Assembly: GCA_025061115.1 (NCBI GenBank)
Contig: JANZKC010000006.1
Span: 1-25,645, forward strand
DNA length: 25,645 bases
Direction of reading: 5' to 3'
DNA from: Candidatus Culexmicrobium cathedralense
GTDB taxonomy: Archaea; Thermoproteota; Methanomethylicia; Culexarchaeales; Culexmicrobiaceae
Position 1 is the stretch's first letter. The number at the start of each line of letters is the position of its first letter. A program made the position numbers and the translations under genes. Positions 2,375 to 23,157 of the stretch are shown piece by piece. A model generated the notes under the pieces. The model was not told where the DNA came from. It did no database searches and saw only the letters and a program-made list of their open reading frames with translations.

Positions 2375-3885
2375 TAATCATAAATCAGTTTAGGGAATAT
2401 CAAGATGTAGTTGAAGAAATAGCAAAGGAATACTATTACATAAACTTGAGAATATTCAAAGACAGCGCAAATTCAGTACCACGAAATCAATGTGGCGACA
2501 TATATATACCAGCAATAAAAGATAAGGACGTGTTCGCTGCCGAGCTTACACATGAGGTAGGGCACTCAGTAAATGATCCAATAACACTATACAACTACCT
2601 TAAGGCACTACATAGAGTTAAAGAGGCATTAAGTATTGACGAAACTACAGTTATGCGGATAGGTAATGCAATATGCGATATAATCAACGAATACCACATA
2701 AGCAAAAACAAAAAGCTAAGCAATTATAGAGCCAAAGGCTTAAAGAAAGTATTTAAAGAGTGGTTTAAAGGCTCAAACAACATTCAGAAATTGCTGTGGG
2801 CTTTCTACAATGAGATACACAACATGAAAATAAAAGAGCTTAAAAGCATATTTGCAGATGAAGTCAAAGAGCTAAAAGGCATATTCAACTACATATATGA
2901 AAGGGAAAGGCAATACATAGCTATAGCTGAAGTGTTACTGAAGATTTTAGAGAAAAACGATTATCAAGATTTAAGCAACATGAGCATGAATTTGCCAGTG
3001 CAACCAAACGAAAAAGAACTTGAAAAAACCGTCAAACAAATAATGCAAAATGCAAAAGACATTAGAGAAGTAGAAGTTATGATAAAAATGCTTGCCACTG
3101 GTTTAGGTGAAAGCGAAAATAACATCATAAAAAGCAACAACATATTAAAAGAGTTTTATCAAGAAAAAGCAAATCAAATTAGAAAATTCATAAGCTATCC
3201 AAAAACAAGTTGCAGAAAAGGCGTAAAGTTAGGCTCAAGAAAGTGGCAATTAAGCGACGGATATAAGAACATTGACGTTAAAAGAACAATAGCGAAATTC
3301 GGCGTAAATATACCATTAGTAACTTCAAGGACAGCAAGAATATACAACAAATTCATAAGCTCAAATGAGAGCAGCAAGCCAATAGATGTAGTGATAAGCA
3401 TTGACGTAAGCGGCTCAACTGGAATGCCCAGCGGATACATGCGTGTAGTTGCAGATTATGAAGCAATAATGCTATATGCACTAATTGACGAGGCAAAGAG
3501 GCTCAATCAAAACGTAGGCTTAACACTGTGGAGCAGCAAAATACTATTCACAACACTACCAAAATGCTTGAACTACCGTGAAGTTGAAAAGCTGAAAGAA
3601 ATAGTGTTAGACCAGTCGCTTTGGGGAGGCTCAACAAACATGTATGCGGCGTTAAATCAAGCAAAACGCCACAAAGATAAGCTATTTCTAATATTCACAG
3701 ACGGCGAAGTATATCCAGAAGACTTAATACATGTTGATAATGTAGTGTTCTTCCTGATAATGCCGCATGCAAGCAATTACAAGATGTTTGCAGATACATA
3801 TGGCAGTCACAGAGTAATAAAGATTGACGACATAACGAAAATACCAAAAGTAACGCTGCAGTGGTATAGGAGCGTGATGAGGTAA
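2371..3885 (+). CDS. vWA-domain protein with N-terminal HExxH metallopeptidase-like domain
   Basis: THEVGH near the N-terminus. MIDAS elements IDVSGST, GGSTN and FTDGE. Translationally coupled to the MoxR gene. Confidence 0.88.
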   Translation: MIIINQFREYQDVVEEIAKEYYYINLRIFKDSANSVPRNQCGDIYIPAIKDKDVFAAELTHEVGHSVNDPITLYNYLKALHRVKEALSIDETTVMRIGNAICDIINEYHISKNKKLSNYRAKGLKKVFKEWFKGSNNIQKLLWAFYNEIHNMKIKELKSIFADEVKELKGIFNYIYERERQYIAIAEVLLKILEKNDYQDLSNMSMNLPVQPNEKELEKTVKQIMQNAKDIREVEVMIKMLATGLGESENNIIKSNNILKEFYQEKANQIRKFISYPKTSCRKGVKLGSRKWQLSDGYKNIDVKRTIAKFGVNIPLVTSRTARIYNKFISSNESSKPIDVVISIDVSGSTGMPSGYMRVVADYEAIMLYALIDEAKRLNQNVGLTLWSSKILFTTLPKCLNYREVEKLKEIVLDQSLWGGSTNMYAALNQAKRHKDKLFLIFTDGEVYPEDLIHVDNVVFFLIMPHASNYKMFADTYGSHRVIKIDDITKIPKVTLQWYRSVMR

Positions 3886-4479: not shown

Positions 4480-4558
4480 TTACACATGTAATTTTTTCTC
4501 AGCCGTTTCAACTCAAAATTTTTAGAGCAGAGACGTGAGCGAAAGTGATTTCCGATTA
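4480..4558. repeat. 79-bp intergenic direct repeat A, copy 1
   Basis: Matches 7213-7291 with 6 mismatches by manual alignment. Begins with TTACACATGTAA. Confidence 0.93.
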
Positions 4559-4577
4559 ATGCGTCGGAGCGAAAGTC

Positions 4578-4633
4578 TTATAAGCAACTTTTGTCATAAA
4601 AGTTGTTGGTTGTCTCGCAAAAAACTTTGAAGG
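4578..4633. repeat. 56-bp promoter/leader direct repeat B, copy 1 (TATA, inverted repeat, RBS)
   Basis: Matches 5394-5449 with 7 mismatches. Contains TTATAA and CAACTTTT-N5-AAAAGTTG (4585-4605). Confidence 0.9.
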
Positions 4634-4636
4634 GGG

Positions 4637-4849
4637 TTGATAGAATTGGTGATGTTGGAAGTATGTGAGAAATGCGGTGAAAAGCTAATTGATTGCCCAG
4701 TGCACTCGAAGGCTTGTTTCTATTGCGATTGTTTAGAGTGCAACATGCGTGATTGCCCAGTGCATGAAGAAATAGACTATGAAATTGAAATGAGCTTCTA
4801 CCCGCAAGAGCCAGACTTCGTAGATTACACACCAGATTACGAAATATAA
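4637..4849 (+). CDS. Small acidic Cys/His-rich (Zn-binding) protein
   Basis: CEKC, DCPVH twice (15-bp DNA duplication at 4690 and 4750), CFYCDC, acidic tail. Start may be ATG 4652. Confidence 0.65.
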   Translation: MIELVMLEVCEKCGEKLIDCPVHSKACFYCDCLECNMRDCPVHEEIDYEIEMSFYPQEPDFVDYTPDYEI

Positions 4850-4867: not shown

Positions 4868-5350
4868 ATGGTGGTTGAAATGATGTTTGACGAGACTAAA
4901 AGTATTGTTTTTAGTTTCGGCGGCGGTAGTCACTATAATGTATTTGATAAAACTATTGTTGTTGATCTTAGTGAGATTTATGAGAGCATTAAAGATTATT
5001 GTGAGCAAGTTAGTGATGATATTCTAGTTGATGCTATTTGCAATGCTGTTGTTCATGAAGTTCTTCATGCAGTATTGCACAAATATTCAGATGAATTTCT
5101 TAGAATTATTTACGATTTTGAAGTTGCGGCAGTAGATGCTCATGAACTCTTAGTTGAAGCGCTAACGAACTTCTCACTTAAACATGATGTTCGAGCATAC
5201 TACGACACTTTAGTTGAAGCTAAAGCGCAACTTGAAGAAATGCTTAAAGACAGCGAAGACGAAGAATATGAATACTTAAAAGAAAAACTTGAACTAGCAA
5301 ACTACGTTTACAAATACACAGAAAAACTATACTCATTTCTGTCAAACTGA
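4868..5350 (+). CDS. Acidic protein with HExxH zincin-like motif
   Basis: VVHEVLHAVLH plus a downstream HE. Followed by a T-tract. Confidence 0.7.
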   Translation: MVVEMMFDETKSIVFSFGGGSHYNVFDKTIVVDLSEIYESIKDYCEQVSDDILVDAICNAVVHEVLHAVLHKYSDEFLRIIYDFEVAAVDAHELLVEALTNFSLKHDVRAYYDTLVEAKAQLEEMLKDSEDEEYEYLKEKLELANYVYKYTEKLYSFLSN

Positions 5351-5393
5351 ATTTTTTCACCTGCAACTTTATAAGCAATTGTAAGCATAAGAT

Positions 5394-5449
5394 TTATAAG
5401 CAACTTTTGACATAAGAGTTGATGGTCGTCTTGTAAAAAACTCTGAAGG
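5394..5449. repeat. 56-bp promoter/leader direct repeat B, copy 2
   Basis: Matches 4578-4633. Ends at the GGAGGTGG RBS before GTG 5461. Confidence 0.9.
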
Positions 5450-5460
5450 AGGTGGTTTAG

Positions 5461-5925
5461 GTGGGTAAGATGTTGGTTGTGAAGTGGAGGCATGCCCAAT
5501 ACGTTGGTCAATTCAGTTACCTCAACGACCGATATCCCGAAACTTCAATTAGAACTTTGAATTACCCAAAGGAAGTGAGCTACGTTGTAAAAGCGACTTA
5601 CAGTGAAAAACACCAGCCTTCGACAGGAATATGCGTTTGGTGGGCGGATTTAGACTTGAGAATAAACATTGAAGAAATAGACTGGTATCACGAGGATGAG
5701 AAAAAAGAAATAGAAAGAGTAAAGCAAATTGTCAAGAAGTTCCTCAACGAGCTTGTTGATGAGAATGGAAACGTTACGTTCGACGTTTCAGAGCTATACG
5801 ACAGACTAATTAAATTATCAACAATACTGAAAGCGCCTTACAGCACCGCTGGGCATGAAGCGGAAATCTACGACACTGGCGGAGACTACCCAGACGCACA
5901 CTTGAAATTCAAGTATTATGCATGA
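5461..5925 (+). CDS. Hypothetical protein
   Basis: 154-aa ORF with strong RBS and upstream TATA. Confidence 0.75.
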   Translation: MGKMLVVKWRHAQYVGQFSYLNDRYPETSIRTLNYPKEVSYVVKATYSEKHQPSTGICVWWADLDLRINIEEIDWYHEDEKKEIERVKQIVKKFLNELVDENGNVTFDVSELYDRLIKLSTILKAPYSTAGHEAEIYDTGGDYPDAHLKFKYYA

Positions 5926-6157
5926 GGTGATAAAAATGAAAATAGGAGAGGTTATAGACAAATACATAGAGAAAAAACTCGAAGAATTAACATTAAAGTA
6001 TGGAGAAGTAATTGATAATGATGAAATCGAATTACTAAGAACGGCACACTATGCAATAAAGAGATTCAAATTTAAATTTGAAGACGGCACAGAGACAACT
6101 ATTGACTTTCATTATGATCCACTAACTGAAGAAGTATTCAAAGTTAGAGAAAGCTAA
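5918..6157 (+). CDS. Small hypothetical protein
   Basis: The GAGGTGA RBS suggests the real start is the second Met (MKIGEV...). Confidence 0.7.
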   Translation: MHEVIKMKIGEVIDKYIEKKLEELTLKYGEVIDNDEIELLRTAHYAIKRFKFKFEDGTETTIDFHYDPLTEEVFKVRES

Positions 6158-6177
6158 AATTCAAAGAAGGTGATGAT

Positions 6178-6714
6178 ATGCCCCTCATTTTATGTCCAAC
6201 TTGTGGTAAAGTAACATATGCTTTTCCACGCTATGATGATGAAGGAGAAATCACGTCATATCGCTGCAGCGAGTGCTATAATGTATTTAATTATGATCAA
6301 GTGAATATATTGCCATTTCCCAATGACACAATAATACTTAACGACACTTTTGATAATATAGTTAGTGAAATTAATAAAAAAGAGCCTGATAATCCAGCTG
6401 AAGAGTTTTACTACGTACTATTGTATCTTTGCAGACCTTACGAGCCGCGAATATACAAGCATAAAGTAGCGTACTGGGATTATCGTGGAACTAGAGATGC
6501 TGAAGAATACAATGATAGATTGCTGGAGAAATTGCAAGAATATTTTGCAGATGCAGTAGATAAATACTATTGCATTGTAGAAATAACTGAGCCAGACGAA
6601 GGAGACTCAATATTCATAGCAATACATCCAGATGACGTTGAAATAATTGAAAAAGCATTAAAGCAATACACACTTACACGCAACAAATACAACGACGCAA
6701 TAACTCCCTCTTAA
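6178..6714 (+). CDS. Acidic protein with N-terminal zinc ribbon
   Basis: CPTC...CSEC. AGGTGA RBS. T-tract after the stop. Confidence 0.75.
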   Translation: MPLILCPTCGKVTYAFPRYDDEGEITSYRCSECYNVFNYDQVNILPFPNDTIILNDTFDNIVSEINKKEPDNPAEEFYYVLLYLCRPYEPRIYKHKVAYWDYRGTRDAEEYNDRLLEKLQEYFADAVDKYYCIVEITEPDEGDSIFIAIHPDDVEIIEKALKQYTLTRNKYNDAITPS

Positions 6715-6751
6715 TTTTTTTACATGTGTAATTTTTGTTTGGTAGTTTAAT

Positions 6752-6767
6752 CCATAAGGTTTAAATA
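6752..6767 (+). promoter_or_regulatory. Conserved BRE+TATA promoter CCATAAGGTTTAAATA
   Basis: Identical to 10001-10016 and one mismatch from 262-277. Confidence 0.75.
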
Positions 6768-7212: not shown

Positions 7213-7291
7213 TTACACATGTAAGTTTTTCTCAGCCGCTTCAACTCAAAATTTTTAGAGCAGAGACTTAAGCGAAAGTGATTTTTGATTA
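7213..7291. repeat. 79-bp intergenic direct repeat A, copy 2
   Basis: Matches 4480-4558, 2733 bp away. Confidence 0.93.
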
Positions 7292-7346
7292 GAGGAAAGG
7301 TTTTTATATCTATACGTATATAATGACCATATGGGGGGATTTTGGT

Positions 7347-7910: not shown

Positions 7911-8045
7911 GATCTATTCTATTAGGTTTTTTTGTTTATTTTGATTCTTTTTTACATGTGTAAGGTATATTGGAAAGGTTTAAATAACCATATGTATATG
8001 ATGTATATTGGTAGAATGTAGATGCACTAGGAGTGTTGTTGAATT

Positions 8046-8944: not shown

Positions 8945-9757
8945 ATGCTAGCCATAGCGCCCAGATACGATGAAGCTACGGAGTACAGCTACAAGTGGAT
9001 TAAAAAACTCATGGAAGAGCTGGAAGCAGAATACACACCACTATTCGAGAGCGACGCTACTAGAGAGAACTTCGAAAAAGAAGTTGAAAACCACAGCATA
9101 GTTGTCTTCTACGATCACGGAGATGAAGTGGGGCTTTACGCTCAAGGCGGACGTACATATGTAATCGACAAGCGGAACAACCACCTACTCAAAGGCAAGA
9201 TAATCTACACGATGGCTTGCCTGTGGGGCATAGACGGTGGAATAGACACGTGGAAAAAAGGAGCAAAAGTAGTCTGGGCATATAAGGACGTGTTTGCATT
9301 CACAAACTACGACGAGGAGCTATTCATGGAATGCGCAAACTACGGCTTAATAATAGTCATTAAAGAAGGAGTTTCATGGGAGGAAGCGGTGGAAAAAGCC
9401 AAAAAGAAGTTCGACGAGGCAATTGAAAAGGCTGAAGACGGTTGGACTAAAATCTGGCTCAGACACGACAGAGATGCACTCGTATGCTACACCGAAAATA
9501 ATCCTCCAGAAACAAGCACATGCATGCTCAGGCAACTTGCAATAAAGCTGTTCGGAGCAAAGCGAGCGTGGAAACTGCGTAGAGCCAAAGTCTTCGCTTT
9601 AATGCTTACATGTGTAGGATACGGCATTGCACTTCACGACTTCGCCCATCAAGTTTGGGAGCTGAAGGGCACTTCCTTAAGCCTTGAAGGCGGATACATT
9701 GGATTCATAATGATGCTGGCAGGTCTTCTCCTACTATTTTTAGACCACAAGGTTTAA
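8945..9757 (+). CDS. Putative clan CD (caspase/gingipain/CHAT-like) cysteine peptidase with C-terminal TM helices
   Basis: IVVFYDHG and IIYTMAC: His-Gly and Ala-Cys, each after a hydrophobic strand, about 35 aa apart. Two C-terminal hydrophobic segments. Confidence 0.6.
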   Translation: MLAIAPRYDEATEYSYKWIKKLMEELEAEYTPLFESDATRENFEKEVENHSIVVFYDHGDEVGLYAQGGRTYVIDKRNNHLLKGKIIYTMACLWGIDGGIDTWKKGAKVVWAYKDVFAFTNYDEELFMECANYGLIIVIKEGVSWEEAVEKAKKKFDEAIEKAEDGWTKIWLRHDRDALVCYTENNPPETSTCMLRQLAIKLFGAKRAWKLRRAKVFALMLTCVGYGIALHDFAHQVWELKGTSLSLEGGYIGFIMMLAGLLLLFLDHKV

Positions 9758-9792
9758 ATATACTCTTAAACATGTATTGTATAGGTGATAAT

Positions 9793-10000: not shown

Positions 10001-10016
10001 CCATAAGGTTTAAATA
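10001..10016 (+). promoter_or_regulatory. Conserved BRE+TATA promoter, followed by inverted repeat GCCCCCAC...GTGGGGGGC (10022-10046)
   Basis: Identical to 6752-6767. Heads the 10038-11865 operon. Confidence 0.72.
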
Positions 10017-11865: not shown

Positions 11866-11901
11866 GCTGCGCTTCCGCTATTTACATATGTAATTTTTTT
11901 G
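11866..11901. terminator. Convergent intergenic region with TTACATATGTAA palindrome and T-tract
   Basis: Lies between the + and - strand operons. T7 run follows the palindrome. Confidence 0.5.
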
Positions 11902-12231
11902 CTACGCTCTTATCTGGATTCTGGGCTTGTAGCCGTGCTTCTTTCGGTAGTATTCTATTGAGAAGATCACTATGTCCTTCTTTTTGGGGCTGTAGCTTAA
12001 AACTATTTGTCCAGCATTGTGCAGTTCTGCTAGGATGTCTATTAGCAGTTTTCTTGGGGCTTTAAATTTCTTTTCCAGCTCTTTCAGGTAGAATTTGTCT
12101 CTCTTATGTTTTGCTAGCAGCTGGAAGTGCTCTAAGAGGTAGTCCAGCACTTCGTTTAGCAGCTTGTTCTTGTATATCCATAGGGTTAACTTGTAGTTTT
12201 TATCTTTCACCGCCAATTTCTCAGCCCCCAC
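11902..12231 (-). CDS. Winged-helix DNA-binding protein
   Basis: FYLKELEKKF...LLIDILAELHNAGQIVL wHTH pattern. Overlaps the end of the upstream wHTH gene. Confidence 0.65.
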   Translation of the reverse strand: MGAEKLAVKDKNYKLTLWIYKNKLLNEVLDYLLEHFQLLAKHKRDKFYLKELEKKFKAPRKLLIDILAELHNAGQIVLSYSPKKKDIVIFSIEYYRKKHGYKPRIQIRA

Positions 12232-12944
12232 CTGTTGATGAAGTGCTTTTTAAGCCCTATTTTCCACTTGCCAGTTACGTCTCTACATATGTAGATTACG
12301 CCTAGTTCACGCAGCCTCGCCAAGTCATTTTGCAGGCTTATCGAGTTGAAGCCGTATCTGACTGCCAGCTCTGTGGGGCTGTCCACGAGGATGAATGGCT
12401 GCCTAGTCTCCTTGAAGTGGTTAACTAATACTTCTACTACTTCTATTTGGTCAGCTGAGCAGTCATGCTCTTTGAGCCACACAACTGCATTGTGGAAGCT
12501 CCTTTGTGAATTTGATGTTTGTAAAGAATTAATTTTACATTTTCTCGTTTCTGTCATATTTCTGTCATATTTCTGACATATTTCTGTCACATTTCTGTCA
12601 TAATATAAATATATGATGTCTCTTATTTTATTATATTCAATGTAGTTTAATCTATTCTTAAAAATATAATCTATAATCTCTATTAATTCATGATTCAGAT
12701 AATATAATCCGTCATGGTAGAGCACTAAGCCGTACTTTCTCAATCTGTACAGTTGCCTGTAAACTGTCCTATACGGAATAGAAGTAGTAGTAGTAATAGC
12801 TGAGTATATCATGTTTAGGGTTTTAGGTTCGCCGAGAAGTATTTTCAGCAGTTCCACGCTTAATCCCCTTATTTTCTCCCACTGAACAGTAGTAGTAGTA
12901 GTAATAGGGGTGCTTACTTCAAGTGCTTTAAGCTTCAAGCTCAC
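12207..12944 (-). CDS. Double winged-helix protein, putative replication initiator or regulator
   Basis: N-terminal wHTH (RTVYRQLYRLRKYGLV) and C-terminal wHTH (SPTELA...LARLRELGVIY). The linker is encoded by tandem DNA repeats. Confidence 0.7.
   Translation of the reverse strand: MSLKLKALEVSTPITTTTTVQWEKIRGLSVELLKILLGEPKTLNMIYSAITTTTSIPYRTVYRQLYRLRKYGLVLYHDGLYYLNHELIEIIDYIFKNRLNYIEYNKIRDIIYLYYDRNVTEICQKYDRNMTETRKCKINSLQTSNSQRSFHNAVVWLKEHDCSADQIEVVEVLVNHFKETRQPFILVDSPTELAVRYGFNSISLQNDLARLRELGVIYICRDVTGKWKIGLKKHFINRWGLRNWR
12548..12602. repeat. 5 x 11-bp tandem repeat TTTCTGTCATA (iteron-like)
   Basis: Units start at 12548, 12559, 12570, 12581 and 12592, two with one mismatch. Very AT-rich tract at about 12603-12710. 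Confidence 0.92.
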
Positions 12945-13043
12945 CGCAAATCCCCTCTAAAAAGTAGTGAGAGCACATCTTAAGCCAAAAATATCTGGAT
13001 AACCAAATTTTAAATTGTTTTCCCTCAAAAATTCTAGAGTGAA

Positions 13044-13403
13044 CTATCTAAGATTCTCGAATAATGATGAGCTTCTAGTTGTTCTCCTGACCGTGAATCT
13101 TCTTGCGCTGAACATTCTCCTCTGCATGCCCATCAGCTTTGCACTTCTAATTATTTCGTCAACCATTTGATTGGCTTTCTTCCTAGCTTCATCTTCCAGC
13201 AGGTCTGGATTCGTGGCTCTAATTACCGTGAAGCATATGTCGAATAGGTCTGTCCTCGCCTGATCCTCATTTATTGCGCCGTCCAAGTACAGGTTGCACA
13301 CGTAAAGTATGCTGGCTGCAACTCCCATTCTGCTTTCCGCTCCAATCACTCCTGCGAGCAGGCTTAAAATTTTGGCTTGGAGGCTCAATTCACTCCCCCT
13401 CAA
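13044..13403 (-). CDS. Hypothetical alpha-helical protein with Arg-rich tail
   Basis: Part of the minus-strand operon. Start may be TTG 13388. Confidence 0.7.
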   Translation of the reverse strand: MRGSELSLQAKILSLLAGVIGAESRMGVAASILYVCNLYLDGAINEDQARTDLFDICFTVIRATNPDLLEDEARKKANQMVDEIIRSAKLMGMQRRMFSARRFTVRRTTRSSSLFENLR

Positions 13404-13533
13404 GCTCCTCTACTGCAAGTAATATTCCCCTCATAACTATATCTTCTATGGTTATTCCTACTTTTCTACTTAACTTCTGCAGCTTCTCCCACACTGCAGC
13501 TGGAATTATAATGTTTATCTCCTTAGAAGCCAT
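13390..13533 (-). CDS. 47-aa ribbon-helix-helix protein (absent from the ORF track)
   Basis: Manual translation MASKEINIIIPAAVWEKLQKLSRKVGITIEDIVMRGILLAVEELEGE. Fills the gap between flanking genes. Confidence 0.72.
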   Translation of the reverse strand: MASKEINIIIPAAVWEKLQKLSRKVGITIEDIVMRGILLAVEELEGE

Positions 13534-13903
13534 ACTTGTATCTCCTCTCCATCTTATTCTCCATTTTACGCAGCCTTCTCAAAATATTCTTTACAGTCCT
13601 CTTCTTCAACACTTCAATTACGTTCTGCTCCTCAGGTATAAGCTCAATAGTTATCCTTACGCCTCTGCCAGTGTCAGCTATCTCGCTAATCATCTTGCAC
13701 CTAATGCCTCTATCTAGAAGGTCGTGGTACCTCCACTGCCCATAGCGCTCAACTTCAGTGAGAGTCTTCCTGCAAATCAGCTTTAATATTGCCATGCCCT
13801 CCTGAAACTCCTTAGTTTTCTTCAGCTCCTCGTCTGGAAGCTCCTCAAAAACCTCGATTAAAGGCTTTTCCTTTCTAGGTCTCGGCATATGGAATACCCT
13901 CAC
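13523..13903 (-). CDS. Hypothetical protein
   Basis: Divergent from the capsid gene. Likely start is MPRPRKEK after an AGGTGAGG RBS. Confidence 0.7.
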   Translation of the reverse strand: MRVFHMPRPRKEKPLIEVFEELPDEELKKTKEFQEGMAILKLICRKTLTEVERYGQWRYHDLLDRGIRCKMISEIADTGRGVRITIELIPEEQNVIEVLKKRTVKNILRRLRKMENKMERRYKYGF

Positions 13904-13964
13904 CTATTTATATATTATCTCTCCACTTATATTTTTTGATTACACCTGTAAGAGGTGAAAATGA
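13904..13964. promoter_or_regulatory. Divergent promoter region of the capsid gene, with TACA box
   Basis: TTTATATA at 13907-13914, TTACACCTGTAA at 13940-13951, GAGGTGA RBS. Confidence 0.6.
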
Positions 13965-14339
13965 ATGCCTCTGTATAGGTCTGCCTTAGATATGTTTAAG
14001 AAATATCAAGCAAAGTACAATCCTACGGTAGTTAGCACTAGATTTGAGAATGTCCAGCAAATTGCATTGGACAGGGCTAATGCTGGATTAGGGATGATAG
14101 GGACTGTCAGAGACTTGATAAGACCAATCCTCGACTCTTACGGTGTTACTGGAGGTATCAGGGCAACCTATTTAGCGTTTGCAACTAAACTCGCTAAGCA
14201 CGCCCTTCGCCAGCAAGGTGACTCTGCAGTTAAGGTTGCCTCAGCCCTCAAGTCCTACTTCGTCAATGCATATGATTTAGATCCGTCCATCTGCGATGAA
14301 ATTATACAAGTAGTCACTGGCTGGGCTGTCGCCTATTAG
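13965..14339 (+). CDS. Major capsid protein, SIRV2/rudivirus type (Adnaviria fold)
   Basis: YQAKYNPTVVST, YGVTGGIRATYLAFATKL and LKSYFVNAYDLDP...IIQVVTG align by eye with my recollection of the rudivirus coat protein (WQAKF..NPTVAST, YGITGPNRAIYQGFGLKV, LKGYYISAFNANP...VVNIITG). Confidence 0.88.
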   Translation: MPLYRSALDMFKKYQAKYNPTVVSTRFENVQQIALDRANAGLGMIGTVRDLIRPILDSYGVTGGIRATYLAFATKLAKHALRQQGDSAVKVASALKSYFVNAYDLDPSICDEIIQVVTGWAVAY

Positions 14340-15540: not shown

Positions 15541-16846
15541 AAAGCCATCTTCAATCAAGAAGAAATATCATGCAAAGACTTTGTCAGATGACGGCATATA
15601 CCTTAATTGGATTAGAAGCCTAGATGTTTCACCTATGTTTGCTGATTACGTCTGGCTCAACATTAGTGCATTTGACTTGGCTCAACTGGGGTTAGGTCTC
15701 ATCTACGATATTGCTCCAATTGACTTTGAGCCGTACAATATTGACTTCAACTTCGTTCAGCCATCAATAGATGAGCTTATGCAGGGCATATGGGTTAAAT
15801 TTGAGCGCAAAAAGCTTGAAGAAGAGTACGAGTGGATGCTCGACACAGACTTATATGTTTCAGAAAACTTTGTTCCAGACTATGTAGGCTCCGTAGAATC
15901 TTCAAGGCTTAGAAAAGGAGTTTACGGCAAAACTAAGTACGGCAGGTCGTACTTCGATCCGCTTCTGATGCGTGAATTTCTGAGAGCAACCATTATGAGG
16001 GCAAGGCTGCTGAGGACACCTGACATTTCATATAAGCAATTTCTCGAGCAGATTAAGGAGATACTTGACCTATCTAAAATTGAGGATAAGCACCTTTACA
16101 ACAGGCTCATGCTTCTGTTTTCAGCTCAGAAGCACGCATTCATACTTGGACTTTCAATTCTAGGATACAGCTTCCTAACTAAAACTGAAGGTGACTGCGC
16201 AGTTATACCATTCATGGATGCAGACGGCAACATCTATGACGTGAAGTTTAGGACTCTAGACCAACTGCTATTCGGCTTCATATTAGGCGTAACTCCACTT
16301 GGAAGAGGCATGCTAATGCCTAAAAACTCGATTTTCAAGATGGAAGACGGAAAGAAGAACCCGCCAATGTTAAGGGCATTGCTGAGCAAGATTAGAAGCA
16401 TAATTTCAAAAATCTCATTGACAGCGTGGGCGTACGGCAACTACAACCGCCCAGAAGAAATGACTAAGGCTCACGCAAGTGAGCGCATGGAGCAGTACGA
16501 CATGCTTCAATGGCAGAGAAGGCTTATTGAGCAGTGGGTTAGAAGGCAGATTCCACCAGAAGAGGCAAACCCAGTTAAAATAAGGCAGTATCAAAACGCA
16601 ATTCTGCAGTACTATGGATGGAAGGCTAAGCGCCACAAGTGGGGCTTTAATGCGTGGAAGTACGCTACGGACGATGAATTCTACAGTTGGTGGATTGAAC
16701 ATTGGACTGCACAAGGTTTAAATAGACAAGTGCTAACAAAACTATTTGAGGGAGCGAAGAAATGGCTACCCAGTTTAATCCAGCAAAAACTTCGTCTCGG
16801 AGAAAGAGTAAGAAGGTCAAGGCTCCGACTAGCCCTGAGCAGATAG
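15524..16846 (+). CDS. Probable minor virion protein
   Basis: 440-aa aromatic-rich ORF in the structural operon with an internal FILG repeat. Function inferred from position and size only. Confidence 0.55.
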   Translation: MPIAPKKPSSIKKKYHAKTLSDDGIYLNWIRSLDVSPMFADYVWLNISAFDLAQLGLGLIYDIAPIDFEPYNIDFNFVQPSIDELMQGIWVKFERKKLEEEYEWMLDTDLYVSENFVPDYVGSVESSRLRKGVYGKTKYGRSYFDPLLMREFLRATIMRARLLRTPDISYKQFLEQIKEILDLSKIEDKHLYNRLMLLFSAQKHAFILGLSILGYSFLTKTEGDCAVIPFMDADGNIYDVKFRTLDQLLFGFILGVTPLGRGMLMPKNSIFKMEDGKKNPPMLRALLSKIRSIISKISLTAWAYGNYNRPEEMTKAHASERMEQYDMLQWQRRLIEQWVRRQIPPEEANPVKIRQYQNAILQYYGWKAKRHKWGFNAWKYATDDEFYSWWIEHWTAQGLNRQVLTKLFEGAKKWLPSLIQQKLRLGERVRRSRLRLALSR

Positions 16847-17092: not shown

Positions 17093-17368
17093 ATGAGCAG
17101 CGTAAGTCTAATCATCCCCCCTTTTTCAGTTCAAGTTGACGACTGCACAGTTGAAGTTCTAGAAGTGAAAAAGCACGAGTTAATCTCAGGGGAAAAATTC
17201 TACTCAGTGGCAGTCAGATTCAACTATAAAGGCATAAAAAGCAAAATAGTCAACCTAACAGTCAAAGACGAAAAAGATTTGCAGAGAAAGCTGAAAATAG
17301 AAGTGTCAAAGATAAAATTTTTAGAAATGACTTATGGTATTAATTATGTGAAAGGTGTGCTTACATGA
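17093..17368 (+). CDS. Hypothetical protein
   Basis: 91 aa. ATGA overlap with the 1472-aa gene. Confidence 0.7.
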   Translation: MSSVSLIIPPFSVQVDDCTVEVLEVKKHELISGEKFYSVAVRFNYKGIKSKIVNLTVKDEKDLQRKLKIEVSKIKFLEMTYGINYVKGVLT

Positions 17369-20300
17369 GTAATCTGGAGCAGGAAGCCCTAATGCTCAAT
17401 CCAGAAGATATTGAGAAGCTAAGCAGAATACTGGCTGAAGCACTTGCCAATCAAATAGCTGAGCAGCCCGAAGCACTTCAAGCCATATTCTACCTTGAAT
17501 ATAGTGAAGTAGTTATCATCGATGTTGATGAGATTACACATGTAGTAAACCTAGACTTGATAGCTTCATCAACGCTTGGATTGCTCGATCCTTTGGGGCA
17601 ACTTCAAGACTGGTTCACAAACATTATAAATTCAATTGCCAGTTGGATTATTAGTGGAATTGAGACCTTCATAAATGACTATGTGCTTCCATTATTCGAT
17701 ACAGTTGCAAGCAGCATTTCATCATTCATAAGTGACTATGTGCTTCCAGCATTCGACAACCTGTTCACAAGTATATCCAGCTGGATAACTGAGTATGTTC
17801 TTCCAGCTATAACTGGAGTTTCAGAGGCAATATCGGACTTCATAACTAATAATGTTCTTCCAGCAATATCTGCGCTGGAGGCATTCCTTTCAGATTTGCT
17901 TTCTGGCACTGCGTTAAGCATCACTCAGACGCTTACAGGTGTAATTCACGGAATTTCAGTTGCAATTCAATCTGCAATTAGCGGGGCAGTCACTTCTATA
18001 ACTAGCATCGTTAACTCGATTTCCCAGTCAATAATGTCTGCAATATCAGGGGTGGTTGACGCAGTTTCATCAACTTTCCAGTCAATTATAAGTGCAATAT
18101 CAGGCGTGATTGACACTCTGTCAAGCATATTCAATTCAGTTGCGCAGTCAATAATGTCTGCAATAGGCGGAGCGATAAATGCAATTTCAGGCGTAATTTC
18201 GGGAATTGCAAACTCCATCATAGGTGCAATATCGTATATCGGTCAGAGCCTGTCAGGTCTATGGGACTTCCTAGTAAGCTCATTTCAAAACATGATTGGA
18301 ATGGTGAGCGCTGGATTCCAAGCAATATCTAATACCTTCATGGGATTCGTAAACTCAATACTTCAGCTTCCAGCACTGCTGTCAGAAACGTTCAGACCAA
18401 TAGGAGAGTGGATTTGGAGCGCACTGCCAGACTGGATCAAAACGCCAATAGAAAACATAGGTAAATTCTTCACAGAAGACTTAATAAACGCTGTAACCGC
18501 GTTTTCAGCAGGCTTACAAGAATTCATGTCAGATCCAGCAGGCTGGTTTAAAGCCAACATAGTTGAGCCAGCATTTGACTTTTTAAGCTTCTTAGGAGAA
18601 AAAGCGTCAAGCCTAATTAACTTCATAATTGATACGCTTAAAGGCGTGTGGAAAGCAGTTGAAAGTGCTTTCTCTGGCTTCATGAAATTTATAGCCAACG
18701 CTATTTCAGGCTTTCTTAAGGGCACATATGAGTCACTTGGGAAAGTTGGTGAAGGTTTTAGACCTATATTTGAAAGTGCATATAAACCAATACCAAAATC
18801 TACTGGTGAAAAAATTTCAGAGATATTCAAGCCGCTCTTTGAAAAAGCATTTAAAGACTTGGGTATTGGAACACCAGAATACCTTAAAATTGACTTTGTA
18901 ACTTCTCAGTTGGTTTGGCAATTTTCAATTGCAACAGCACTTGCATTTTCACCTTTCTGGGCGCAAATACCAATAAGATTAGTCTCATTCATACTGTATA
19001 ATGTAGGTCAATTCGTGCATGGATTGGAGCTTCCAATAAGAATTAACTTGACGCCGCTTGGAATAGGTGTGGATAAAACTTTTAATCTTGCAAAGGCAGT
19101 AGGAGCTTCTCTCAGCCACTTCTCAGCTGAGCTGAAGAAATGGGTTGATGAAGTTGGCAGAGGACTGGTTTATGGATTTTCTATATGGGCTACTCAGCCA
19201 ATTACGAAGTCATTAAACTACTTGATGAGAAACGTTATTCCAGTAGAGCTTCCACAGCTTAACGTTATTAGGGAGTTTACTAGACGTGCACTTGCACATG
19301 AAAATTATGGTGAAATTGTTAAGCTGGCATGGTACTACATGGCTCTATACGGGTACTCAGATTATGTTATAGATTTGTTCTTCAAGAAGGCGGAAGAGTA
19401 CTACATTGAAATAGAGGATAGATTCGGCAATAAGAGGATTGTTCCATTAGCATTAGTTTACAATTTGCCGTCCGCCTCAGATGTAGCCCGCATGATGGTT
19501 AGAGACATCATCATCAAAATTGAAGATTTTGAGAAGTTCTTCCTTGCAACTGGAATGCACCCACACATAGCGAAGCTATACTACTTGCTTCACTTCAGGT
19601 ATCCGTCGCCAGAAACATTGTGGAAGTTCACTATGAGGGGAGTAAGCGGATTACTGTGGGCTACAATATCCAGAGAAGAAGAAAAAGACATAGAGAGAGA
19701 TGTAAAGGCATCTGGCGGACACTATCCACTGCCGCCGTCAGCTCTAAATAAAATGGATGCATCTACATGTGGAAAACTGCTGGATGCATTTAAAAAATAC
19801 ATGAAGTGGCATGACTATGCAAGGTTCAGCTACATTCCAGACTTCCCTTCAGACAACCTAATATACATTGACACGTTAGCTGACATTCCAACTAAAATTG
19901 ACCAGAGATGGATGGTTAAGTGGGGCTTATATGAGCTTTTAAGTGAAAAAGGCGTTTCATATAAATCTCCAATCCAACACTTTGTTGCAAAGATAGTTGA
20001 AGATAATCCAGCTTCAGAAGTAAAGATGGATTTAACTAACTTTTCAAGGACACTTCAAGCAACGGGATTGCATCCATACTGGATTCCAGTAACCGCCGTA
20101 GCTGAAGCCATGAATGCACTGTCAGAAGAAAGAACTTATCTGAGGACTGGAGTCATAAATCTCTTCAAAGAAGGCTTCATTTCAAGGGATACTTTGAAGA
20201 GTGTGTTTGCTGGAGCCTTCAAAGTATCATTTAAAGTCGCCTACTTCGATGTAAGTGATTACACGTGGAAGACTGGATACGTTAACCTGCCAGTAATGTA

Positions 20301-21783
20301 CCTTCCAGCTGAGCGTGAATTATTGGCTTTGAGGGCAGACATGGATAGAGTTCTAGATATACTCAGGGAAATACAGAGAGATGTCAGTCAAGCATATCAA
20401 GAAGCAATAATTCCAGATTATGAGAAGTACAAGGAGAGGCTTACACAAGTAATTGAAAACATTAAAGATTTAGCTCCACCAAACGTTAAAATTGAATTTA
20501 TTGAGAAATACTATAAGCCATACGTTAAAGCACTTGAAATATACAGGGAAGTCTATACTGTTAGGAGAATACGCAGCTGGACTATGAGGTGGCTTGGCTG
20601 GATAATGTATCGTGTAGCAACTGGACTGGTAACTGAAAAGGAGCTTTCAAGCCTCGTTAATACATTAGCCTATTACTCAAAGCTAACTAAAACTGAATTG
20701 AAATTCTTCAGCGAAGTATTATCAGTTATGAGGGGAATTGCAGCTAGGGAGTACCTTCCAACTCCATCTCAGCTAGCCACTCTGTCAGAATACCTTGTCA
20801 TTTCAAGTGAGCTGATAGATACGTGCCTCAAAGTTAAAATGGTGCCAGACGAGTGGAAGCCCCTATGGAAGCAGTACATTAGAATTAGACCTGTTGCAGA
20901 TGACATTAAAAGCCTGCTGTCAACTTACCGTAGAGCACTTCTATATGTAACTATTCCAAAGGATATTGAAAAGCAGATAATGAACTATGCAAAGCTAATT
21001 AATTTTGGAAAAGAAGAGCTTGAAATACTAAACTTAAGAGTATCACTTGAAGAGCTAATTCAGAACAGCAGGGAATACATACCTACACCATACTCGCTAG
21101 CCACTCTCTGCGAATACCTGCCAGAAGCCAGAAAGTTCTTCAATCAAGTAATGGAAGCTAAGAGGGTTCCAAAGGAGTGGCGCCCGCTGTGGGCTAAGTA
21201 CATTGATATTAAACCGCTAGTAGATGACATTAAAAAGTACCTAAGTAGAGCTGAAAACCTGTACGCAAGATTCATGATTACAAAAGAAGCCTTTCAGGAA
21301 GTGCTCGACGAAGTAGCTGAGTACTTAGGCTACACTTCTAAAGAAATCGAATTTCTAATGAAGGTGACGGAGTTTGAGAGAGCTAGAAACGCATGGACAG
21401 AGCTTATAGGCACAGTTGAGAGGCTCGTATCTCTAAGCGAATACTCGCCGACAGCAACAAAATATGCGTTAGGTAAACTTAAAGCCATGATAAACTCGCT
21501 GCCGCTTCCAGACCAAGATAAGCAGGAGCTGTACAAGATGTGGGAGGAATACATTAGAAACAGACCAATCAAATCTGAAGCTAGAATGTACATTACCCAG
21601 CTAATAAACCTATACATAGATGACTTAATTACAACTGCAGACTTTGAAAGGGAGCTTCAGGGAATGAAGAAATGGGGGTTCTCAGACAATGAAATAATGT
21701 TTTACAAGGCTATAGCGGCACTTAGAAAAGCTAGAAAGCTGAGAATACCCATAACATATCCAGAGGAAGAGCAGGCAGGCTGA
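17365..21783 (+). CDS. Large virion structural protein (probable terminal fibre/end structure)
   Basis: 1472 aa with N-terminal amphipathic 19-aa and 18/22-aa repeats and C-terminal 108-aa repeats. Largest gene of the structural operon. Confidence 0.65.
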   Translation: MSNLEQEALMLNPEDIEKLSRILAEALANQIAEQPEALQAIFYLEYSEVVIIDVDEITHVVNLDLIASSTLGLLDPLGQLQDWFTNIINSIASWIISGIETFINDYVLPLFDTVASSISSFISDYVLPAFDNLFTSISSWITEYVLPAITGVSEAISDFITNNVLPAISALEAFLSDLLSGTALSITQTLTGVIHGISVAIQSAISGAVTSITSIVNSISQSIMSAISGVVDAVSSTFQSIISAISGVIDTLSSIFNSVAQSIMSAIGGAINAISGVISGIANSIIGAISYIGQSLSGLWDFLVSSFQNMIGMVSAGFQAISNTFMGFVNSILQLPALLSETFRPIGEWIWSALPDWIKTPIENIGKFFTEDLINAVTAFSAGLQEFMSDPAGWFKANIVEPAFDFLSFLGEKASSLINFIIDTLKGVWKAVESAFSGFMKFIANAISGFLKGTYESLGKVGEGFRPIFESAYKPIPKSTGEKISEIFKPLFEKAFKDLGIGTPEYLKIDFVTSQLVWQFSIATALAFSPFWAQIPIRLVSFILYNVGQFVHGLELPIRINLTPLGIGVDKTFNLAKAVGASLSHFSAELKKWVDEVGRGLVYGFSIWATQPITKSLNYLMRNVIPVELPQLNVIREFTRRALAHENYGEIVKLAWYYMALYGYSDYVIDLFFKKAEEYYIEIEDRFGNKRIVPLALVYNLPSASDVARMMVRDIIIKIEDFEKFFLATGMHPHIAKLYYLLHFRYPSPETLWKFTMRGVSGLLWATISREEEKDIERDVKASGGHYPLPPSALNKMDASTCGKLLDAFKKYMKWHDYARFSYIPDFPSDNLIYIDTLADIPTKIDQRWMVKWGLYELLSEKGVSYKSPIQHFVAKIVEDNPASEVKMDLTNFSRTLQATGLHPYWIPVTAVAEAMNALSEERTYLRTGVINLFKEGFISRDTLKSVFAGAFKVSFKVAYFDVSDYTWKTGYVNLPVMYLPAERELLALRADMDRVLDILREIQRDVSQAYQEAIIPDYEKYKERLTQVIENIKDLAPPNVKIEFIEKYYKPYVKALEIYREVYTVRRIRSWTMRWLGWIMYRVATGLVTEKELSSLVNTLAYYSKLTKTELKFFSEVLSVMRGIAAREYLPTPSQLATLSEYLVISSELIDTCLKVKMVPDEWKPLWKQYIRIRPVADDIKSLLSTYRRALLYVTIPKDIEKQIMNYAKLINFGKEELEILNLRVSLEELIQNSREYIPTPYSLATLCEYLPEARKFFNQVMEAKRVPKEWRPLWAKYIDIKPLVDDIKKYLSRAENLYARFMITKEAFQEVLDEVAEYLGYTSKEIEFLMKVTEFERARNAWTELIGTVERLVSLSEYSPTATKYALGKLKAMINSLPLPDQDKQELYKMWEEYIRNRPIKSEARMYITQLINLYIDDLITTADFERELQGMKKWGFSDNEIMFYKAIAALRKARKLRIPITYPEEEQAG

Positions 21784-22119: not shown

Positions 22120-23157
22120 TTGAGGTACATCTTCTATGCATACCCGCTATTCAAGAAGGTCAGCTTCGCATTTATTGCTGAGAAGCACGTTAAGCAGCTT
22201 AGAAGGTATTTTAAAGTGGAGCTGATTGATGAAAACGCCATCCCTTTTCTGCACGGAATTTTTAAGCCATTCGTATTGCTGCAGCCATTCTTCTATCCAT
22301 TTCAGAATTATGAAAAAATTCTTAGCAGGCGGGTTTACAGGTGGCGTGGACTTATTGGCATTGACGTTGCAGATTCAAATAGGATTAGCAGATATGCGGT
22401 TAGACTAACTGAGTATGCTACTGCAATGATTGTCCCATCAAACTATTCTAGGAATGCTTACGTCCGCTCTGGTGTAAAAAAGCCAGTTTACGTCATTCCG
22501 CATGGAGTTGACTTAGAATACATAGATGCACCTAAAAGCCAGCCCAACAGCTTCAAAATACTGGACGACTTAAAGAAGAGCAGGAAACTGAAAATTCTAG
22601 TGAGCTTCATAGTGCACAGCGAATACAGAAAGGGGCTAGATCTTCTCTATGAAATTTATAATAGGCTTAGAAGAGAAAGAAAAGACGTTGCACTAGTAAT
22701 AAAGGACTTGCATGGAGTTAAATTAATTCTAGATAGTGAAATGCGGATTTACAATGGATGGCTGTCAGAGCAGGACAAAATGGAGCTATTCGACCTGTCA
22801 GACCTATACCTACTAACAAGCAGAGGCGGCGGCTTTGAACATCCAGCTCTAGAAGCAATAGCACGTGGAGTTCCAGCCATTGGAGCTGAAGGCGGGGCAT
22901 GGGAAGATTACATGTGTAATTGGATGCTTGTCCCATCAAAACCTAGTGGAGAAGTTCTGGCTGGAAATCCAATCCATATGGGTATAGGTGTTGAAATGCT
23001 GGTGGATAAGGCAGTCGATAGAGTTCATGACATTCTAAACAACCTAGATGAATATAAGGCTAAGACAAGGGAATATGCAAACACGGTGATTAAAGAGAAA
23101 TTCACATGGACAAGAGTAGGTTTATTATTGAAAAAAGTAGTTGAACGTCATATATAG
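22120..23157 (+). CDS. GT-B/GT4 glycosyltransferase
   Basis: VIPHGVD, RKGLD and SRGGGFEHPALEA motifs. Confidence 0.9.
   Translation: MRYIFYAYPLFKKVSFAFIAEKHVKQLRRYFKVELIDENAIPFLHGIFKPFVLLQPFFYPFQNYEKILSRRVYRWRGLIGIDVADSNRISRYAVRLTEYATAMIVPSNYSRNAYVRSGVKKPVYVIPHGVDLEYIDAPKSQPNSFKILDDLKKSRKLKILVSFIVHSEYRKGLDLLYEIYNRLRRERKDVALVIKDLHGVKLILDSEMRIYNGWLSEQDKMELFDLSDLYLLTSRGGGFEHPALEAIARGVPAIGAEGGAWEDYMCNWMLVPSKPSGEVLAGNPIHMGIGVEMLVDKAVDRVHDILNNLDEYKAKTREYANTVIKEKFTWTRVGLLLKKVVERHI

Follow-up and report, generated by a model that had tools for sequence, protein, structure and literature searches.

An 11-bp repeat array and AT-rich tract inside the gene of a tandem winged-helix protein: a possible replicator-initiator cassette on a rudivirus-like archaeal genome

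The 245-amino-acid gene and its internal repeats

This report concerns the gene for a 245-amino-acid (aa) protein with two winged helix-turn-helix (wHTH) domains and the DNA elements written into its coding sequence. The gene lies on contig JANZKC010000006.1 (assembly GCA_025061115.1, Candidatus Culexmicrobium cathedralense), of which positions 1 to 25,645 were analyzed; this whole stretch of 25,645 bases, with a GC content of 39.3% and 34 scanned open reading frames (ORFs), is called the window below. Five 11-bp direct repeats stand beside AT-rich DNA inside the gene, and with a pair of inverted arms around them they form a composite, conserved nucleic-acid element within the frame of the protein. 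An earlier reading of the bare sequence (the original prediction) had taken the repeats for the iterons of an internal origin in a rudivirus-like virus. The features of the gene, in gene order, are as follows.

12207 to 12944, minus strand: gene for the 245-aa tandem winged-helix protein, P0001 (ORF and AlphaFold2 model)
12885 to 12907, minus strand: weaker second copy of the 5' arm of an inverted repeat, coding the N-terminal TTTTT run; 83% complementary to 12425 to 12447
12696 to 12863, minus strand: N-terminal wHTH, residues 28 to 83 (AlphaFold2)
12777 to 12799, minus strand: 5' arm of the inverted repeat, coding AITTTTSI; 23 nucleotides (nt), 91% complementary to 12425 to 12447, with 329 nt between
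12744 to 12746, minus strand: codon of Arg67, in the recognition helix (residues 58 to 71) of the N-terminal wHTH; the residue tracks the variable core base of the repeat unit
12603 to 12710, no strand assigned: AT-rich tract, 108 bp, 16.7% GC, directly upstream of the array in the sense of the gene
12534 to 12644, minus strand: long helix, residues 101 to 137 (AlphaFold2)
12548 to 12602, minus strand: array of five head-to-tail 11-bp direct repeats, TATGACAGAAA on the gene strand, read in three rotating frames (Tandem Repeats Finder)
12425 to 12447, minus strand: 3' arm of the inverted repeat, containing GTAGTAGAAGTATTA, which codes VVEVL in the first helix of the C-terminal wHTH (repeat search)
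12252 to 12497, minus strand: C-terminal wHTH, residues 150 to 231 (AlphaFold2)

Tandem Repeats Finder describes the array as 5.0 copies of an 11-nt period (unit TTTCTGTCATA, 90% matches, score 96), the sole period-11 row among the 13 returned for the window. This agrees with the five repeats of the original prediction, and the gene-frame translation yields the peptide, YDRNVTEICQKYDRNMTE, that it had read from them in rotating frames. With at most one mismatch, the unit occurs at six sites in the 25,645 bases, five in the array and one at 5336 to 5346, compared to a chance expectation of 0.93; none of 100 shuffles reaches six. The unit core, GACAGAAA, has four sites in the array and one elsewhere in the 25.6 kb, and the array is therefore the sole clustered candidate target of the 245-aa protein in this DNA. 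The same single outside copy led us to reject a global regulon.

Both the array and the tract are translated. In copy 3 of the array (12570 to 12580), a single A-to-T change turns an in-frame TGA into TGT. Across 12548 to 12710, the gene frame has no stop in 54 codons, compared to three to eight stops in each of the other five frames, and only 6 of 5,000 shuffles of this stretch stay open, so the array and the AT tract are coding and no intergenic gap was overlooked. The tract, foreseen as about 100 bp of very AT-rich DNA, codes for the I/Y/N/K-rich part of the long helix and the stretch preceding it, and it is one of the two lowest-GC places in the window, the other being 125 to 260. The repeats thus lie inside the coding sequence of the gene, with the AT-rich tract directly beside them.

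The AlphaFold2 model of P0001, built with 35 relatives, has a mean predicted local distance difference test (pLDDT) score of 87.9, with residues 1 to 17 disordered, and contains both wHTH domains that had been proposed. The repeats had been assigned to the linker between these domains. They do lie between the two, but the residues that they code (114 to 133) are inside the long predicted helix and not in a loose linker.

Relatives of P0001 number 52 cluster representatives at an expectation value (E) of ≤1e-3 in an exhaustive search, mostly 205 to 300 aa long with both domains, while a word-based search returned three, at 79, 53, and 48% identity. They come from the rudivirus-like genome and from contigs, mostly short (1 to 10 kb), in bins named Bathyarchaeota, Iainarchaeum, Thermoproteota, Methanomethylicaceae, and Nitrososphaerota. 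Fused longer forms (521 to 2000 aa) were not found at E ≤ 1e-3, which is weak evidence. At E ≤ 1, family members match the Pfam families HTH_5 (21 of 35), TrmB (18 of 35), and HTH_24 (16 of 35), all generic wHTH families; P0001 itself matches TrmB alone, at E 0.026, under the cut-off. Its 50 best Foldseek matches are of the ScpB, MarR, CodY, and SarS types, with whole-chain template modeling (TM) scores of ≤0.28. With these family matches and the MarR-type Foldseek matches, the protein has the traits of generic wHTH regulators (ArsR/TrmB/MarR-like). In the ESM Atlas, the matches were to generic HTH clusters only, none of them reaching 0.9. The gene, searched as DNA and as protein against a phage collection, had no match, and P0019, a central member of the family, had only insignificant partial matches in phages and plasmids (E 0.2 and 0.04).

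Conservation of the array and its covariation with residue 67

Arrays in relatives were sought with a three-frame test, in which the best 22-aa inter-domain window of each of 54 proteins was scored against the periodic three-frame translation of any 11-nt unit, with a cut-off of at least 14 matches of 22. Thirty-one of the 54 relatives reach the cut-off, compared to none of 216 residue-shuffled family proteins and none of the 33 other ORFs of the window. Moreover, 24 of these 31 outscore every one of 200 within-window shuffles and of 200 column permutations in which an 11-aa period is preserved. For 15 of the 31, one frame of the ideal unit contains a stop at which the real protein has a sense codon; the repeat persists in spite of coding pressure. 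The 79% relative fits the unit of the window with one base changed in every copy, as evidenced by D to E, T to K, and Q to K occurring together.

Two relatives, the only full-length ones compared as DNA, were located with an 11-row alignment, and each carries an array at the homologous place in the gene.

L001, 895 to 970: array of 11 nt × 5.7 to 6.8 copies, on a 4.4-kb contig binned to Bathyarchaeota (33% identity)
L002, 1915 to 1971: array of 11 nt × 5.2 copies, on a 3.3-kb contig binned to Iainarchaeum (31% identity)

In both, the GC minimum falls at or just before the array (0.17 to 0.25 in 60-nt windows, compared to 0.54 and 0.37 for the contigs), and the 15 residues that precede the array are enriched in AT-codon amino acids relative to the remainder of the protein in 32 of 38 family rows. 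The search for iterons in homologous genes thus came out in favor of the original prediction, with 11-nt arrays at the same place in both DNA sequences and in the 31 proteins.

Several relatives show further repeats. P0006 and P0059 to P0062 have NIHNIHNIH just before their arrays (alignment columns 120 to 135), which implies a 9-nt AT-rich tandem repeat, and other relatives have runs of N, S, or T upstream of the array; the stretch is generally repeat-prone. P0036 (196 aa) and P0045 (173 aa), with the cluster of the latter, lack winged-helix domains and consist almost entirely of periods of a YDRNMTEIWQK-type peptide, whose unit is nearly identical to that of the window, with the TGA frame read as TGG. 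Encoded on contigs of 1 to 2 kb, these proteins imply arrays of roughly at least 20 11-nt units elsewhere.

Sequence comparisons between close relatives reveal that the unit changes in concert. P0006 differs from P0059 to P0063, members of the same 90% cluster, in every copy of the unit and in the recognition helix, although the flanks on both sides are identical. Between P0001 and P0002, the unit and the N-terminal half differ, but the C-terminal ~85 aa are identical, a mosaic pattern in which the variable N-domain and the array travel together. Within the same 90% cluster, the copy number of the array is constant (five clusters of two to six sequences each), and phase variation by copy-number change is accordingly unlikely. 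Units are identical at synonymous sites within one array and differ between lineages.

These observations bear on a reading in which the repeats would have no nucleic-acid function: the inter-domain helix would be tolerant, slippage would create the repeats, and the 11-aa period would be that of a hendecad-like helix. The region is indeed a predicted long helix, and the homopolymers and short repeats just upstream in relatives, noted above, would fit slippage. K/E/R-rich stretches also pass the three-frame test more easily, and the seven of the 31 proteins that fail to beat all controls are mostly of this kind. However, slippage by 11 nt would shift the frame except when three units move together, and slippage should therefore favor units of 3, 6, 9, or 12 nt; column permutations with the 11-aa period retained also fail to give the same fit. 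The synonymous-site identity of units within an array and its loss between lineages, the constant copy number in the five clusters, and the tracking of residue 67 by the unit also argue against this reading, which we regard as very unlikely.

The tracking of residue 67 was established from 55 rows of at least 190 aa, of which 36 had a confident unit (≥14) and Arg or Asn at this position, the other 19 being dropped. Arg67 occurs with ACA units in 18 rows and without them in none, whereas Asn67 occurs without ACA in 17 rows and with it in one (P0044), so that 35 of 36 rows are concordant. In a tree from which the helix and array columns were left out, residue 67 and the ACA trait change 10 times each. 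Recognition of a C:G pair by Arg and of an A:T pair by Asn is the common textbook pattern of major-groove readout. Taken together, the concerted change of the unit and its tracking of residue 67 lead us to infer that the protein probably binds the array in its own gene.

Inverted arms, neighboring genes, and genome context

The inverted arms flank the AT tract and the array. The longest run that is identical in the window gene, L001, and L002 is the 15-nt GTAGTAGAAGTATTA of the 3' arm, and a run of at least 15 nt occurs in only 1 of 5,000 synonymous-codon shuffles. The Ser/Thr run near the 5' end is coded by its reverse complement, and we derived here that TSTTS is the antisense of the EVVEV codons; a run of at least three Ser/Thr residues precedes the first winged helix in 32 of 35 members. 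The arms of L001 are 20 nt long, perfect, and 378 nt apart, and those of L002 are 13 nt long, 92% complementary, and 416 nt apart. Synonymous shuffles reach the arm score in 0 of 300 cases for the window gene and 1 of 300 for L001, but the best inverted repeat of L002 is not unusual (19 of 300).

An element acting at the level of RNA might explain this pattern. The Ser/Thr-run codons would pair with the VVEVL codons and close a loop of 330 to 440 nt in the mRNA or in displaced single-stranded DNA, where the A-rich repeats would be single stranded and could bind the protein or a host factor, for instance, in translational feedback or stability. The arm helix is present in the minimum-free-energy and centroid RNA folds of the window gene and L001 (z-scores of −3.46 and −2.58, 20 shuffles each), and the RNAalifold consensus of the three genes includes it as columns 42 to 61 with 519 to 539. 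Across the three sequences, pairing holds in 96.3% of 54 cells, and of 18 pairs, 3 vary at both positions and 12 never vary; this paired percentage is reached by 20 of 500 shuffles and the covariation score by 11 of 500, and slid controls pair at 28 to 78%. The evidence from three sequences is thus suggestive only, and the arm complementarity, which exceeds synonymous shuffles in the window gene and L001, is weak in L002. Two inverted copies of one protein-binding site would give the same arm pattern, and the correspondence of Arg and Asn to C and A is the usual textbook readout of double-stranded DNA. Rfam gave no match in the window at gathering scores and none in 12100 to 13050 at E ≤ 1. 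We consider an RNA-level element improbable.

An intragenic invertible switch that recodes the protein was rejected as well. Inversion between the arms would place the first stop at codon 99 in the window gene and at codon 33 in L001, and all reverse frames hold 7 to 11 stops. Recombinase families have no match among the 34 ORFs of the window. Only recoding is rejected on these grounds; inversion could still act as an on/off switch.

The gene is part of a minus-strand block, 11902 to 13903, with these neighbors.

11902 to 12231, minus strand: overlapping downstream ORF of 109 aa, which in relatives starts 5 codons later (104 aa) (ORF list and model)
13044 to 13903, minus strand: three upstream ORFs of 126, 47, and 119 aa (ORF list)

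The downstream ORF had been proposed as a wHTH partner of the 245-aa protein. Its model contains a long helix and a wHTH-like fold (pLDDT 74.4), with MarR-like Foldseek matches (best E 6.4e-3), and so the fold assignment is borne out at the level of a prediction; complex prediction with the 245-aa protein and the 104-aa neighbor gave scores of 0.05 and 0.13, compared to a mark of 0.32, and speaks neither for nor against binding. The ORF is syntenic in close relatives, and of its four homologs, two share 40.0-kb and 19.4-kb contigs with relatives of the 245-aa protein. It resembles the C-terminal half of the 245-aa family weakly (hhalign probability 9%). Upstream, the 47-aa ORF (13390 to 13533) matches PHROG phrog_876, "transcriptional repressor" (E 2.9e-4), and the 126- and 119-aa ORFs match no family.

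The proposed rudivirus-like nature of the genome was confirmed by the major capsid protein gene at 13965 to 14339, which matches Pfam Sulf_coat_C (2.4e-21) and 42 rudiviral records, all at <60% identity and at ~31 to 33% among the 30 listed, and by core genes in the window. Identical or near-identical copies of the 245-aa protein occur on contigs of 39.9 to 40.0 kb, so ~14 kb, about a third of the genome, lies outside the window. The window, which is part of the genome, has no visible terminal inverted repeats, and its 34 ORFs have no match to Rep, polymerase, or primase families at E ≤ 0.01, in keeping with the original prediction, which had seen no HUH Rep, polymerase, or primase there. The family scan also identified two GT4 glycosyltransferases, an FkbM methyltransferase, and a 1472-aa protein (17365 to 21783) whose N-terminal third matches tape-measure-like PHROGs and whose gene contains internal DNA repeats spaced 54 to 66 nt (17668 to 18233) and 324 nt (20746 to 21235). 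At 923 to 2374 lies an AAA+ ATPase gene (AAA_5 at 1.6e-8, AAA_lid_2, a weak MCM_lid, and a PHROG "DNA helicase" at 4.5e-6), adjoined at 2371 to 3885 by one for a 504-aa protein with a weak VWA match; such a MoxR/VWA-like pair (923 to 3885) is unusual in a rudivirus-like genome.

Two further motifs recur in the window. A 12-bp palindrome, TTACAYRTGTAA, has 26 sites with at most one mismatch, compared to 0.22 expected, and none of 100 shuffles reaches 26; the sites include 62 to 73, 4480 to 4491, 6720 to 6731, 7213 to 7224, 7952 to 7963, 11882 to 11893, 13940 to 13951, 22908 to 22919, 24282 to 24293, and 25526 to 25537. Several copies stand between genes and 20 to 80 bp upstream of promoter-like motifs, and the palindrome could be bound by a dimeric regulator or could signal termination or processing. 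The promoter-like motif, AAGGTTTAAATA, has five exact copies, mostly ~25 to 35 nt ahead of a start codon, with sites at 266 to 277, 6756 to 6767, 7297 to 7308, 7975 to 7986, 9749 to 9760, 10005 to 10016, and 16713 to 16724, and it looks like the BRE/TATA (transcription factor B recognition element and TATA box) consensus of the virus. The intergenic stretch at 125 to 260, flanked by three palindrome copies (10 to 21, 62 to 73, and 294 to 305) and the promoter-like motif, is a candidate alternative control or origin region. Two pairs of long intergenic direct repeats (4480 to 4558 and 7213 to 7291, 79 nt, 92%; 4568 to 4637 and 5384 to 5453, 70 nt, 83%) start at or near palindrome copies and may be duplicated regulatory regions or small RNA genes.

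Origin, operator, or partition site

Several known systems resemble parts of this architecture. WhiP, a predicted tandem winged-helix protein, is required for oriC3 of Sulfolobus; its chromatin immunoprecipitation sequencing peak lies mainly inside its own ORF, where a DNase I footprint covers conserved AT-rich direct repeats bound with nanomolar affinity, and an extrachromosomal element is the suggested source of the replicon (PMC3607249). The likeness to the Cdt1-related WhiP/oriC3 system is one of layout: archaeal proteins, with predicted tandem winged helices and AT-rich direct repeats in the protein's own ORF (PMC3607249; PMC4010727; PMC5333045). The 245-aa protein shares these traits, with tandem winged helices in its AlphaFold2 model and AT-rich direct repeats in its own ORF. 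WhiP homologs are reported from Sulfolobales and Desulfurococcales only, whereas the present family is from a rudivirus-like genome and other archaeal bins. The Pfam CDT1 family and the WhiP-named NCBIfam families are not among the best 25 families per list.

The other close precedent is lambda O. In ori-lambda, gene O carries iterons and an AT-rich tract midway along its length, both of them translated, and extra iterons add residues to the protein; there are four 19-bp iterons, each an imperfect inverted repeat, compared to five abutting 11-bp direct repeats here (PMC7466680). The likeness lies in repeats, bound by the initiator in lambda, with an AT-rich tract, mid-gene and translated (PMC7466680). 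Lambda is a bacterial phage, with a host in a different domain of life from that of the archaeal virus studied here, and neither Pfam nor the Foldseek top 50 gave a match to lambda O in sequence or fold. Lambda O also has a type-specific N-terminal part and a more conserved C-terminal part. Of these precedents, WhiP would be the closest tested one by analogy, with lambda O/ori-lambda as the other.

Rep_3 initiators of iteron plasmids (RepE, RepA, and pi; TrfA) are chains of ~250 aa with two winged-helix domains that bind direct repeats beside an AT-rich region, a layout that the present protein would share. Their iterons are 17 to 22 bp long, lie ~two helical turns apart, and are outside the rep gene, and neither Pfam nor the Foldseek top 50 (best whole-chain TM 0.28) gave a Rep_3 match for P0001. 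Initiators of the Orc1/Cdc6 type have an AAA+ domain followed by a winged helix; P0001 has no AAA+ domain in its model and no AAA+ family match.

How a single wHTH might fit on 11 bp is illustrated by regulators of the OmpR/PhoB type, whose winged-helix monomers bind direct repeats in tandem symmetry (PMC3348028), and by Mycobacterium tuberculosis PhoP, whose 7-bp motifs with 4-bp spacers have an 11-bp period (PMC4832192). One wHTH per 11 bp is therefore sterically possible. These regulators belong to an unrelated domain family (P0001 has no Trans_reg_C match) and bind two promoter sites, compared to five to seven intragenic sites here. An archaeal virus regulator, F55 of SSV1, binds tandem repeats with an 11-nt consensus, including in its own promoter (PMC5569661). 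It resembles the present system in this respect, but it is a ribbon-helix-helix protein with paired promoter sites and not a coding array, and its description includes no AT-rich tract or flanking arms.

We propose that the arms, the AT tract, the array, and the gene may together act as a self-contained replicator-initiator cassette comparable to WhiP/oriC3 and lambda O/ori-lambda, a tentative first choice that we hold with slightly less than even confidence. First, the N-terminal winged helix would bind each 11-bp unit, with one unit per helical turn, so that all copies would lie head to tail on one face of the DNA, and residue 67 would read the core base that varies, Arg recognizing C:G and Asn recognizing A:T. 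Second, the protein array would strain or open the adjacent 16.7%-GC tract. Third, the conserved C-terminal winged helix, perhaps with the conserved arms, would recruit host replication proteins. This reading is ranked first because direct repeats, an unwinding-prone tract, inverted flanks, and the gene of the binding protein are the layout described for archaeal origins, in which an AT-rich region flanked by repeats stands next to an initiator gene (PMC4010727). The published case of WhiP, a tandem winged-helix initiator that binds repeats in its own ORF, likewise fits the idea behind the original prediction (PMC3607249).

Many points weigh against the cassette. The oriC3 initiation site is mapped to the intergenic region downstream of whiP and not to the intragenic repeats (PMC3607249), unlike the intragenic origin proposed here. 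Homology to known initiators was not detected: RepE, RepA, pi, Orc1, and Cdt1 are absent from the Foldseek top 50, Pfam and NCBIfam gave nothing beyond generic wHTH, and a profile search of the PDB gave only weak wHTH matches; similarity to lambda O, Rep_3, Orc1/Cdc6, or Cdt1 was likewise not found among the matches listed. Cumulative GC and AT skew, also put forward as a check for an internal origin, follows gene orientation only; since it turns where the minus-strand block at 11902 to 13903 begins and ends, it tells nothing about an origin. An 11-bp unit without spacers is far shorter than classical iterons (19 bp in lambda), and the gene sits within a block of small regulator-like genes. 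As for the array as a family trait, 23 of the 54 relatives score under 14. L003, a 136-aa N-domain-only relative at 5848 to 6258 of a 22.6-kb Bathyarchaeia contig, stops at the point where the long helix should begin and lacks an 11-nt array, being either truncated or a paralogue with a single domain.

The residue-67 correlation has limits too. On well-supported branches, there are four independent pairs, all in one direction, for which the sign test gives p 0.125, the lowest value that four pairs allow. The 36 rows include near-duplicates, and the dropped low-scoring rows are partly discordant (P0014, P0028, P0035, P0038, P0041, and P0051), with unreliable unit calls. Residue 67 and the array are ~150 nt apart, and one exchanged DNA block could carry both. 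Finally, Sulfolobales rudiviruses start replication at their genome ends with an HUH Rep, and the ~14 kb beyond the window may hold a Rep. The internal, initiator-driven replication module of the original prediction therefore stands in part: family-wide arrays, the AT neighbor, and the helix-array covariation are consistent with it, while the initiator homology was not found and the skew was uninformative.

The main rival is an autoregulatory operator, which accounts for the same sequence facts nearly as well. Here, a transcription factor would bind the array in its own gene and either act as a roadblock for RNA polymerase or repress a weak internal promoter in the AT tract, from which the C-terminal domain and the 109-aa ORF would be expressed. 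All evidence that the protein recognizes its own array counts equally for an operator, the family matches are to transcription-factor wHTH families, and the neighboring genes are small and regulator-like, including the repressor-like 47-aa ORF. Precedents are the tandem 11-nt operators of F55 (PMC5569661) and the tandem binding of direct repeats by the winged helices of PhoB (PMC3348028) and PhoP (PMC4832192). The C-domain-only relatives P0021, P0043, and P0049 begin in or near the array, in line with this reading, but these short forms may be artefacts of contig ends or gene calling. Moreover, the promoter-like motif AAGGTTTAAATA has 11 matches in the window at up to two mismatches and none within 12500 to 12720, an operator needs neither a conserved, very AT-rich tract nor flanking arms, and a variable N-terminal half with the array next to a conserved C-terminal half would be more typical of initiators. 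We judge the operator possible but rather doubtful.

A segregation or packaging site, at which the array would act like a centromere or would nucleate the capsid and would carry a helical filament of the protein, is the least probable of the readings considered. Its appeal lies in the tandem short direct repeats with one unit per helical turn, which resemble the R1 plasmid centromere parC, where 11-bp units are bound by ParR. In addition, the profile search of the PDB gave a weak match to the archaeal plasmid partition adaptor AspA (E 1.7e-3 to 2.4e-3), and the family genes, being mostly on contigs of 1 to 10 kb, could belong to mobile elements. On the other side, family scans revealed no ParA-type or other partition ATPase beside the gene within the window, and L001 offers no more than a HerA-like ATPase near its gene. 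Such sites are not marked by an AT-rich tract, and a lytic rod-shaped virus would have no obvious need for partition. The ATPase of L001 (2493 to 4382; 629 aa, DUF87 at 1.9e-7) has a long coiled-coil tail and is encoded ~1.2 kb downstream of the family gene.

Arrays of binding sites inside initiator genes are already known from lambda O and WhiP. What is new, in that the literature searched contains no description of it, is the family-wide three-frame 11-nt design with a patched stop, the residue-base correlation, and the embedded arms, as well as their occurrence both in a rudivirus-like genome and across contigs of several archaeal phyla; among the matches listed, no title or abstract opening describes a viral WhiP-like protein. 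More boldly, and at a confidence well below that given to the cassette itself, these genes could represent a widespread, undescribed family of replicator-initiator cassettes of archaeal viruses and mobile elements. Such cassettes would hold the whole origin (arms, unwinding tract, and helically phased 11-bp iterons in three frames) inside the frame of the initiator, with one residue setting specificity (Arg for C:G, Asn for A:T), and would be mobile-element kin of WhiP/oriC3 and so of eukaryotic Cdt1.

Whatever the function of the element, a DNA signal and a protein sequence share the same bases under conflict here, as evidenced by a three-frame 11-nt unit in which the stop of one frame is patched, and the correlation of one residue with one base predicts a swap experiment. 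How replication starts in archaeal viruses and small mobile elements outside Sulfolobales is largely unknown, and a compact cassette of protein plus site is a testable candidate. If the proposal holds, rudivirus-like viruses outside Sulfolobales would have an origin within the genome that is driven by an initiator, in place of or alongside terminal priming by an HUH Rep, and the family might supply a minimal replicon for vectors in archaea that are hard to handle. If the kinship with WhiP holds, it would support the capture of oriC3 from a mobile element and would give the intragenic WhiP repeats a family-wide meaning.

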